Assembly (NCBI GenBank): GCA_038214755.1
Contig: JBBQRQ010000069.1
Coordinates: 1-26,812 of the forward strand
Source of the DNA: Verrucomicrobiota bacterium
Lineage (GTDB): Bacteria > Verrucomicrobiota > Verrucomicrobiia > Limisphaerales > CANJXF01
DNA: 26,812 bases
Direction of reading: 5' to 3'
The position numbers are program-made. Of this stretch, positions 3,001-6,000 are shown in pieces; the first letter of the stretch is position 1; each line of letters begins with the position of its first letter.

Positions 3001-6000
3001 TTTCGGGGCATGTCAGCGATGCGTTGCCGGCTTCCAGCATTTTTCCTTCAGTCGCGGAAGCAGCGGGATTCTTCTCGTTGGGTGCGACCGGTTACTCGGC
3101 AACCTGGTCAGAAAATCATTATCACGGAATGGAATTAAGTTCGCTTGATTGGACAGTTGAGCCGCTTGCGATAGAGGCAGCGCATTCCTGTTTTTTCAAT
3201 GATCCAACACGATTTCCACCGGGCGCGGCGGAGTTGGACTGCGCCTTATTGATGCGAGGCATCGAACATCAATGGCACAGCCGGCCCGATCTTTACTTGT
3301 CCGCAACTGGCGATTCGCTCACAACTCGCAAATAGCTTCTACAATTTCTAAAAATTTTCATTGGCAAAAATATTTTCGCGATGAACAGTCTTCGCGTTCT
3401 TTGAAACTCAAAGGATGGTTCGCCATCCATCACGGCCAAATTTTGGGAACCCGGTGAAAATCCGGGACGGTTGCGCCACTGTTACGGGCTACAAACTTCC
3501 ATTGCCACTGGTTCCGCTCGCGGAGCTGGGAAGGCGGGAGGGCGGTTCGATGCCCGAAGTCAGGATACCAATTTGGTTGTGCTCGTCGCGGTGGGGAAAG
3601 GATGAGGGATTAAGAGTTGAGGGTTGAGAGTCAGAAAGCGTGGAAGCGCCTGGTCTCTCAACCATCAACTCCCAAACTCTCAACCCGCCTCCGCCAACTT
3701 CTCCGACAAAGAGAAGGATGAGGCCAGCCCGCTAAAACTGTTTTTTGGCGGATTCGTTGAATGCCTTCATTCCCCGTTTTGTCGGAGTTTGAAGGTTTTT
3801 TTATTTTGCAGCGGCGCGTCTGTGACCGCCGCTGAAAAAATACAGCGCCTCGTGTTTTGCCAATGGCGGCGGTCAGAGACGCGCCGCTACAAGACTCTTC
3901 AAACTCCGCGCTGGTCTCTCAATCACAAAACCGTTTTACAAAATTTTTGTGAAACAAAATTGAAAGATCGGTCATGTTAAAAAAATATTCCACGCTGGCT
4001 TTGGCCGGCCTTATCCTCGTTCAAGCTTCGGTCAACGCAGTGACGCTCACCGAAAATTTTTCCACCAATCCGCTGGCCACTGGCTGGAAAATTTTCGGCG
4101 AGACCAATTTGTTTCAGTGGGATCCCACCAATCAAAATCTCCGTGTCACCTGGGATTCTTCCCGCGCCAACAGCTATTTCCACCGCTCGCTCGGAACGAT
4201 TCTCGCCACGAATGATAATTTCGCTTTGTCGTTTGATTTGCGTTTGAGCGACATCGCCATCGGCGTGAACACCAACAAGCCCTTCACCTTTCAGATCGCG
4301 CTCGGCTTTTTGAACCTAGCCAATGCGACGAATGCCAATTTCATTCGCGGCTCCGGTTTTCAATCACCTAATCTCGTCGAGTTGGATTATTTTCCCGACT
4401 CAGGTTTCGGCGCGACGATTTCGCCGACCATTATTTCCAGCAATCAGGTTTATGCGAACGGCGGATTTAGTTTTCCGTTTGAACTGACGCCCAACGATTT
4501 ATTTCACGTCGCCATGAATTACACCGCGAGCAATCAGATCATGAAAACTTTGATGACAAAAAACGGCGCGGCTTTCGGCCCGATTGCTGATGTTTATTTC
4601 GGAACAAACTTCACCGACTTTCGCGTCGATACTCTGGCTGTTTCCAGCTACAGCGATGCTGGACAAGATCCTGGTTTTTCGGGTTCAATTCTCGCGCACG
4701 GTGTCGTCGATAATTTTGTTGTGACGGTTCCGAATCCGCCGATTGAAAATTTAGCTGGCGGTTTTACGAACCATTTTTGGCAAATGCAATTCAACAGCCG
4801 AACAAATTTCATTTACGTTTTGGAACGCACGACTGATTTGCAAGCGTGGACCACGGCTTCGAGCACGGCGCAGGGAAATGGAGGCGCTTTAGTTTTGCAG
4901 GACACCAATTCCATTTTGGAAAAAGCATTTTATCGCGTGCGCGCGGACCGTCCATGAGCGACGGAGAAAAACACATCCGGGTAGCATCTGCCTCCGGCGG
5001 GTGCGGATCAAAAACCTGGGTAGCATCTGCCTCCGGCGGGTGCGAAAAGTTTTCATCGTTTTTCGAGAAGCGGAGAGCCTGTTCGCTTAACTTAAAAAAT
5101 TGTGCCGCACCCGCCGGAGGCACAGAGATGAGGCAACCATGAATTTGTTTTCTCTGTGTCTCTGTGCCTCTGTGGTTCGACCTTTGTTCTGGAAATCACG
5201 TTTTGCCGCCCTCCTCGAAAACGAAATCCCTTGATCGTCACAAAAAATAGAGTCCGTCCTATTTTTATTCCTCCTCGTTTTTACCTTCGATATGAAGACG
5301 ATGCAGCAGCCGATGCGCGAATGGCGCAATCAATAAGGTCGCGACTCCAATAATGATCAATCCGCAAAACAACGCGTAACACGAAGCAAAAATTTTCGCG
5401 CCGGAAGTTTGGAGTGTGCTGACCGGGCCCATGCCGCCGAGAATCATGGAGGCATCGAGCAGCGCATCGATCCAGGCGATCCCGGCGAGAAAATGATACC
5501 CTAAAATCCCAATGGCCAACACGGCCGCGATGACGCCAAGCGCCAGCGAAACATGGAGCAAGACACGTTTGGTAAAAGCTTTTCGACTCAGAAGTTTTTT
5601 TGTGCGGTGTTCGTACATTGGAAGATCCGACACCGAAACTGAACCTCTGAGGAGGAAATAGCAAACTTACTTGCCGTCGCTGGCGAAGGCCGATGACATC
5701 GGAGCCGCCGACGTAAGGAGGCGGATTCAACCGACACCACAAATCCGCCTCCTCACGTCGGCGGCTACGACTCGTGCCCGCATCAGGGCAAAGCCAAACG
5801 ATAAAATCGTTGCGTGTTGCTCAGAAAATCTTTCACCACGGAATTGGTTGGTTCACCAAATGCCGGAAGGTTGGTGAGGGTCAGCCATGCATTCTGTCCA
5901 AACCCATTCCGATATTCGACCGTGTAGGTCTGATTGGCTTCCGCAAAAAATTTCAGTTCGACGACATTGCTTCTCACAGTCACCTGGTTTATTCGCGGAA

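Follow-up and report, generated by a model that had tools for sequence, protein, structure and literature searches.

E. coli-type uptake of B12 uses BtuB/TonB and BtuFCD, and the vitamin is generally held to require BtuB and TonB for its passage through an outer membrane. In the archaeal bindosome, the binding protein itself bears a prepilin-type leader, and legume lectins carry a Mn/Ca-binding acidic motif. Riboswitch-controlled loci with secreted B12-capture proteins have been described as the BtuB-BtuG-BtuH-BtuJ system of Bacteroides thetaiotaomicron (accessible parts of PMC8941943 and 10.1101/2025.08.21.671476; structures 7BIZ and 8BLW); there, the C-terminal domain of BtuH2 (PMC8941943) and the DUF4465/BtuJ family (10.1101/2025.08.21.671476) bind B12. 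Type IV filaments are known to take up DNA and, in archaea, sugars (PMC6711533, accessible part), and a similar role has been proposed for glycans in Akkermansiaceae (Akkermansia MUL2; PMC13174399, accessible part).

Here, we analyzed a window of 26,812 nucleotides, the whole stretch of DNA under study, from a Limisphaerales genome in which a cobalamin riboswitch precedes the gene g03459, whose product is called protein A. We report, from computation, the riboswitch and its leader anatomy, the operon, the co-inheritance with a prepilin named C1, the likeness of a partner domain to BtuH, and the exclusion of BtuB. The locus resembles those of B. thetaiotaomicron in its riboswitch control, its secreted putative capture protein, and the BtuH-like domain in the operons of most relatives; however, a search of this genome for BtuB was negative, and its position is occupied by a dedicated H-X9-DG prepilin; the proteins of the order have a PEP-CTERM or FYR tail and are not lipoproteins; and the sequence of protein A has no relation to that of BtuH or BtuJ. 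The regulatory slot is the same as that of an E. coli-type receptor, as 27 genomes of the order have a BtuB-type protein, 18 of them directly behind the riboswitch, but BtuB, BtuF, and BtuC were not found here, and the receptor excludes the module. The type IV uptake devices (archaeal bindosome, competence pili, Akkermansia MUL2), as far as the accessible sources describe them, share a pilin-type filament tied to nutrient or DNA acquisition, whereas here the substrate would be a vitamin, the host is diderm, and a separate H-X9-DG pilin pairs with the binder; unlike the bindosome protein, protein A has an SPI-like leader and no prepilin leader.

We consider that this is probably a module that acquires B12 with the help of a pilin and replaces BtuB. 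The initial annotation had already pointed to a B12-capture module, and this is supported by the BtuH-like partner, the presence of DUF4465/BtuJ proteins in the same slot, and the exclusion of BtuB. Riboswitch-controlled B12 scavenging itself is known; its pilin-linked form appears to be new. In the accessible literature, with most subscription papers and the supplementary regulon and neighborhood tables outside that scope, no link of a cobalamin riboswitch or B12 uptake to H-X9-DG/DUF1559 prepilins was found, and the accessible part of PMC11685898 holds nothing on pilins.

Anatomy of the riboswitch leader

The aptamer belongs to RF00174, with a covariance-model score above gathering, and was the sole RNA family detected by Rfam in the window (Table 1). 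A genome-wide RF00174 search of this 97%-complete genome returned this match only, in agreement with the claim that the only cobalamin riboswitch of the genome precedes g03459.

Table 1. Features of the riboswitch leader and the protein A gene, in window positions.
Feature	Position	Strand	Evidence or description
RF00174 cobalamin riboswitch aptamer	3396-3587	+	73.1 bits vs gathering 31.5, E 1.7e-16, full-length model
Inserted palindromic genomic repeat in leader	3614-3686		Folds into long hairpin
Conserved 6-bp stem, candidate P13	3698-3716	+	100% paired in 43 leaders
Antiterminator alternative	3701-3788	+	Overlaps candidate P13 and terminator
Intrinsic-terminator-like hairpin and U tract	3764-3807	+	MFE -13.0
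Inserted REP-like palindrome	3806-3891		-58.1 kcal/mol
Hairpin masking putative ribosome-binding site	3910-3972	+	-18.2 kcal/mol
Protein A ORF, 327 aa	3974-4957	+	Next gene after riboswitch
Signal-peptide-like segment, residues 1-22, Sec/SPI type, no lipobox	3974-4039	+	Hydrophobic stretch
Domain A, ConA/legume-lectin-type beta-sandwich, residues 23-254	4040-4735	+	Model, fold searches
All-beta C-terminal tail, about 70 aa, ends FYR	4736-4957	+	Common to many secreted proteins

Downstream of the aptamer, the leader offers mutually exclusive structures, the 6-bp stem plus the terminator-like hairpin versus the antiterminator, and the 3698-3800 segment has an MFE of -40.3 kcal/mol. The 6-bp stem, a candidate P13, showed no covariation, as five of its six pairs are invariant in 43 leaders; a kissing contact may form between its loop and that of the aptamer near 3471-3475, and a covariation test of this contact, with only six distinct loci, saw none. 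In the same 43 leaders, the two outer helices of the antiterminator are 87.6% and 97.2% paired and the terminator-like stem is 97.3% paired, with one-sided changes only. The hairpin masking the putative ribosome-binding site has an 11-pair consensus in 27 leaders, with pairs that are mostly invariant. The leader looks like a functional switch; the helices in the aligned leaders (27 or 43) are conserved with little covariation, and a simple terminator scan did not call the 3764-3807 hairpin, so that switching is a prediction. This conserved expression platform is present order-wide, in 88 of the loci scanned, and it also lies upstream of btuB in btuB-bearing genomes.

The leader also contains inserted palindromes. 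A 17-nt motif of the 3614-3686 repeat matches the genome 25 times and a motif of the 3806-3891 palindrome has 103 matches, both at no more than two mismatches. Further REP-like palindromes were observed 3' of the gene (window 4978-5045 and 5105-5125). In another genome of the order (locus L107, G004:C18), a second, BtuH-fused copy of the gene keeps the platform, with no aptamer at the Rfam gathering score.

Protein A, its fold and its tail

Protein A had been described as a secreted 327-aa protein without a family, and this description holds: no Pfam or NCBIfam family was matched, the 54 homologues gave no consistent Pfam match, and the leader is hydrophobic in 45 of 45 unfused homologues, with a lipobox-like motif in two. 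The N-methylation motif had no match in protein A. A structure model from the 54 homologues (pLDDT 95.6, pTM 0.90) had peanut lectin 1ciw as its best fold match (Z 15.5, rmsd 3.6, 200 aligned), followed by many glycan-related and non-lectin ConA-fold domains at Z 13-14. The legume-lectin-like fold proposed earlier was thus recovered, while the label "unknown fold" has to be dropped, as the fold is known (ConA-like) and only the family is new. Among the Atlas clusters, the two best for this domain are unnamed, and the named DUF6645, DUF6772, and PelX_N are leads only.

The fold neighbors of domain A are glycan-binding or glycan-cleaving domains, and it has the ConA-like beta-sandwich of the legume lectins (PF00139; 1CIW); however, its identity to lectins is 10-14%, the PF00139 cut-off was passed by none of the 54 members, one representative scored 15.1 against 26.3 bits, and the protein is bacterial, B12-regulated, and devoid of a glycan-utilization context. 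Residues W38, W49, W60, D61, N66, R125, E136, F140, and Y226 are conserved, E136 in 98% of sequences, and D138 in less than 70%. The VE-x-D-Y/F stretch aligns with the VEFD segment of peanut lectin, in a weak match (E 0.07). With legume lectins as the top fold matches, this VEFD echo, and the proposal that verrucomicrobial type IV-like pili serve glycan attachment (PMC13174399, accessible part), protein A might be a true lectin or adhesin on a pilus tip, which would fix B12-starved cells to producers or to a biofilm with no contact to B12. We regard this as improbable, given the low identity, the many non-lectin domains at Z 13-14, the fact that many genomes have protein A fused with a BtuH-like domain, and the swapping of DUF4465 into the same slot along with the exclusion of BtuB, both presented below.

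No sequence relation of protein A to any proven B12 binder was found. Homology to BtuJ/DUF4465 was rejected, since the profile comparison with hhalign gave a probability of 0.3 and PF14717 was not matched. As to the augmented jelly-roll fold of that family, the best 50 matches of the fold searches include no DUF4465 structure. The comparison with the BtuH-like profile gave a probability of 0.2, and there was no match to 7biz or 8blw.

The FYR C-terminal domain of the initial annotation is present, but it is generic and not specific to this system: it matched no Pfam family, ends 32 ORFs of this genome, and is exchanged for PEP-CTERM in one representative (P0086). Two other regions of the window, 5783-10656 (-) and 15115-17409 (-), encode a DUF1800-DUF1501 pair, a secreted protein of CBM96-like type that accompanies it, and one more large secreted protein; two of the proteins in these regions end in an FYR-type motif.

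Operon partners within and beyond the order

Full-length protein A was found 94 times in 92 of 151 genomes of the order, and 99 genomes hold the protein if partial matches to the N-terminal domain count; a tally of 119 of 151 was rejected, as it was inflated by tail-only matches. A cobalamin-clan riboswitch on the same strand lies within 5 kb upstream of 86 of the 94 copies, directly upstream (<700 nt) in 31, and prepilin C1, of the H-X9-DG type, adjoins 73 copies and is found within 6 kb downstream of 78. These numbers extend the earlier claims that homologues are widespread (then 50 of 81 genomes), that the gene keeps the riboswitch across the order, and that one specific prepilin usually follows. 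It had also been suggested that another gene may separate riboswitch and gene in some relatives, and indeed, in all longer-distance loci read, a domain named here domain B intervenes or is fused in front; of 150 representatives, 22 bear domain B, and many of these 22 are fusions.

By its sequence and predicted fold, this intervening and often fused gene is BtuH-like, i.e., it has a known B12-binding fold. The top sequence matches of domain B were BtuG1 (8blw, E 8e-6) and BtuH2 (7biz, E 0.008), which were also top in Foldseek; in the VIA comparison both gave Z 11.7, with an rmsd of 3.4-3.5 over 138-142 aligned residues, against 9.4 for the next match. The identity to BtuH2 and BtuG1 is 25-26%, and no Pfam family was matched beyond a weak PEP-CTERM. 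Domain B occurs in 64 of the 99 protein A genomes and in none of the 27 genomes with BtuB. It was not found in the genome studied here, and therefore protein A is its only riboswitch-controlled gene. Since protein A stands without domain B in 35 of 99 genomes, this one included, and has conserved aromatic and acidic residues, the chances that it binds B12 itself are about even; the alternative is that it serves as an adaptor for BtuH-like binders.

Protein A and prepilin C1 occur together in 95 genomes, with four genomes holding only the protein and one only the prepilin, and both are retained even when unlinked. This is the case in the genome under study, where the partner prepilin had been placed on another contig; it was found on contig C16, in an unrelated pilin cluster among other prepilins, with no Rfam match and no riboswitch nearby. 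Its scores of 27.8 against 16.3 bits for TIGR02532 and 26.2 against 19 bits for TIGR04294 identify it as an H-X9-DG prepilin. In that region (L112:5394-12643, G000:C16), three prepilins stand in tandem, of which it is the last, and the flanking genes encode secreted proteins that contain passenger-associated repeats. The prepilin clades used here come from a quick tree without outgroup pilins. Some loci of the order have Cys-rich CWC/DUF5522 domains in frame ahead of the signal-like segment of protein A or ahead of the prepilin (L108:1439-2896, L109:1475-2809, L110:1602-2828, L007 (-), P0029, P0096, P0126, and P0149).

In 300 other genomes of the phylum, the protein A profile at E<=1e-12 had no matches, and C1-like prepilins were found in 14. 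The gene before the prepilin encodes a DUF4465-PEP-CTERM protein (DUF4465/BtuJ) in 4 of these 14 loci and a distant, full-length homologue of protein A in 5 (hhalign 99.1%). The 14 loci, all short, belong to other orders or classes, and 6 include the riboswitch. Restriction of the family to Limisphaerales was therefore rejected, because distant homologues adjoin prepilins in other classes of the phylum. As both kinds of protein precede prepilins, protein A fills a slot that is taken elsewhere by proven B12 binders, though its sequence shows no kinship with theirs.

Exclusion of BtuB and the proposed route of B12

Of the 67 listed riboswitches without a link to protein A, 52 were examined. Eighteen lie upstream of a TonB-dependent receptor, for which TonB-B12 was the best NCBIfam match in two of three tested, all below the cut-off; 14 precede a large, BtuH-containing, tail-bearing protein and a prepilin of clade C2; 14 lie in front of loci for ribonucleotide reductase, a part of which also include MetE; four precede domain B and prepilin C1, with protein A elsewhere in those genomes; and two run into contig ends. 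The second riboswitches of the order were observed before ATP-cone ribonucleotide reductase genes, in some cases followed by MetE (L040, L048, L092-L103). The C2 loci (14 within L032-L070, e.g., L045 and L056) encode a large secreted protein with the layout X1, BtuH-like, X2, and FYR tail, then C2, sometimes with stand-alone X1-PEP-CTERM genes. The X1 domain had no Pfam or PDB sequence match and no profile link to protein A, and this second module is scattered on the tree in 16 of 151 genomes.

Profile searches of the 151 genomes found C1 in 96, C2 in 16, and a BtuB-type receptor in 27, the last comprising 25 genomes at 603 bits or more, one with the gene split over two contigs, and one with a broken copy; other TonB receptors reached at most 267 bits with this BtuB profile, which was built from 16 of the 27 receptors, all riboswitch-linked and from genomes without protein A, and is thus partly circular. 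The broken copy is riboswitch-linked (L055, G053:C17), and no pilin module was found in that genome, which is 70% complete. A pilin module is present in 99 + 16 + 1 = 116 genomes and the receptor in 27, with an overlap of 0 where about 21 were expected, a figure that counts kin as independent and rests mostly on draft genomes. The three systems (protein A/C1, C2 module, BtuB) never occur in pairs in one genome, and 8 of 151 genomes have none of them by these queries. The protein A module and the BtuB-type receptor are, therefore, strictly mutually exclusive in the 151 genomes. On an rpoB tree (FastTree, single gene, 91 of the 151 genomes), there were at least seven changes and six independent pairs differing in BtuB, with four genomes that have neither system included. 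Of 200 pairings, 185 had the pilin module opposite in 6 of 6 pairs and the remainder in 5 of 6 (sign test p 0.03-0.06). Exchange between the pilin and BtuB solutions has taken place several times.

Such a pattern could also arise if the link to the riboswitch were incidental, or served cobalt or another ligand, with the gene pair hitchhiking and the exclusion produced by DNA replacement behind a single riboswitch. Most genomes have a single RF00174 match, so that an incoming btuB could overwrite the locus, and protein A has moved off the riboswitch in three genomes among the loci read; however, protein A and its prepilin are both still kept when unlinked, genomes with BtuB have neither of them anywhere, and the partners are B12-binding folds. 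We consider this explanation very improbable.

By computation, the genome under study is B12-dependent and auxotrophic. Among class I/II ribonucleotide reductases, only the B12-dependent NrdJ was matched, NrdD was not found, and five B12-binding-domain matches were over the cut-off, one of which is presumably MetH; a PF01717 protein is also present. CobS, CbiC, PF01497 (BtuF), and FecCD (BtuC) were not found in this genome, and CobS was found in only 2 of 151 genomes of the order. Three TonB-dependent receptors were matched, with a best score of 226 bits against at least 603 for intact, full-length BtuB-type proteins; the receptor with this score, on contig C17, was rejected as BtuB, with DUF4154 and a sensor kinase as its neighbors. 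Given these three matches, and plug domains in 7 of 10 near-complete genomes tested, there may be a divergent B12 receptor here. On the other hand, in the closed, single-contig genome G047, which has the order riboswitch-B-A-C1, and in G006, no TonB-receptor barrel or plug was matched.

These observations bear on a further reading, namely that the module does no more than store B12 at the surface or in the periplasm, with the prepilin helping to secrete or display the binder, and that the vitamin crosses through a porin, a divergent TonB receptor, or a leaky envelope. Other TonB receptors are present in this genome, one representative has PEP-CTERM in exchange for the tail, and BtuH and BtuJ of Bacteroides are accessory to BtuB (accessible parts of PMC8941943 and 10.1101/2025.08.21.671476). 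An accessory protein should, however, coexist with BtuB, and yet the overlap is 0, and G047 has no TonB-receptor match at all; we therefore find the reservoir rather unlikely.

According to the preferred reading, that of a pilin-dependent module in place of BtuB, low B12 would let the antiterminator form and gene A be expressed. Protein A, as the constant cargo or partner subunit of a B12-repressed module, would be exported by Sec, and may be located at the surface rather than in the periplasm. It would work with the dedicated H-X9-DG prepilin, assembled by the type II secretion/type IV filament machinery; this genome has four secretins, and its prepilin-type ORFs number about 90, with 87 recognized by profile and 91 by motif. 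The pilin is predicted to contact protein A, and might hold it by addition of a C-terminal strand, by analogy only with the PilC/PilY1-PilK tip complex, a model for a C-terminal strand that holds a secreted all-beta protein on a pilin tip (PMC13533445, accessible part). Protein A would capture cobalamin either directly or by serving BtuH-like binders as an adaptor, and the vitamin would be carried across the outer membrane by the dynamics of the filament at a secretin, with no TonB-dependent receptor involved.

For the inner membrane, a BtuF-like protein occurs in 27 of 99 protein A genomes and 20 of 27 BtuB genomes, and given this scarcity no importer was identified. In three loci (L018, L020, and L107), genes for a DUF6580 membrane protein and a PF01902 ATP-pyrophosphatase-like protein lie downstream of gene A in the operon, which makes DUF6580 a candidate for B12 import at the inner membrane. 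In two genomes (G081:C20:19239-20687 and G077:C138:2347-3918), PF01497 (BtuF-like) and prepilin C1 appear to share a frame (648 and 754 aa).

A stronger form of the proposal is that most Limisphaerales import B12 with no TonB-dependent receptor at all, the H-X9-DG pilin carrying a lectin-fold protein of a new class of B12 binders on a retractile filament through the secretin. This is a tentative idea, possible but short of an even chance. If true, the prepilin paralogues, of which there are roughly 90 per genome, would form a general, modular alternative to TonB, each with its own tail-bearing capture protein, and a new B12-binding fold family would be added. About three quarters of the sampled genomes (116 of 151), from an abundant order of apparent B12 auxotrophs, carry the pilin module instead of BtuB. 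On the preferred reading, the H-X9-DG/DUF1559-type pilin family, hitherto lacking a known function, would gain a defined ligand and a regulator, and pink protein or B12-limited growth would serve as a simple read-out.

Two other features of the window were observed. At 22697-24496 (-), a thiC-like ORF (23125-24003) spans only Pfam positions 213-419 of 420, the C-terminal half, with an unrelated small gene upstream, and is possibly truncated. At 24797-26385, a DNA methylase (N6/N4) is convergent with a familyless 184-aa ORF, and the two could be a restriction-modification pair.
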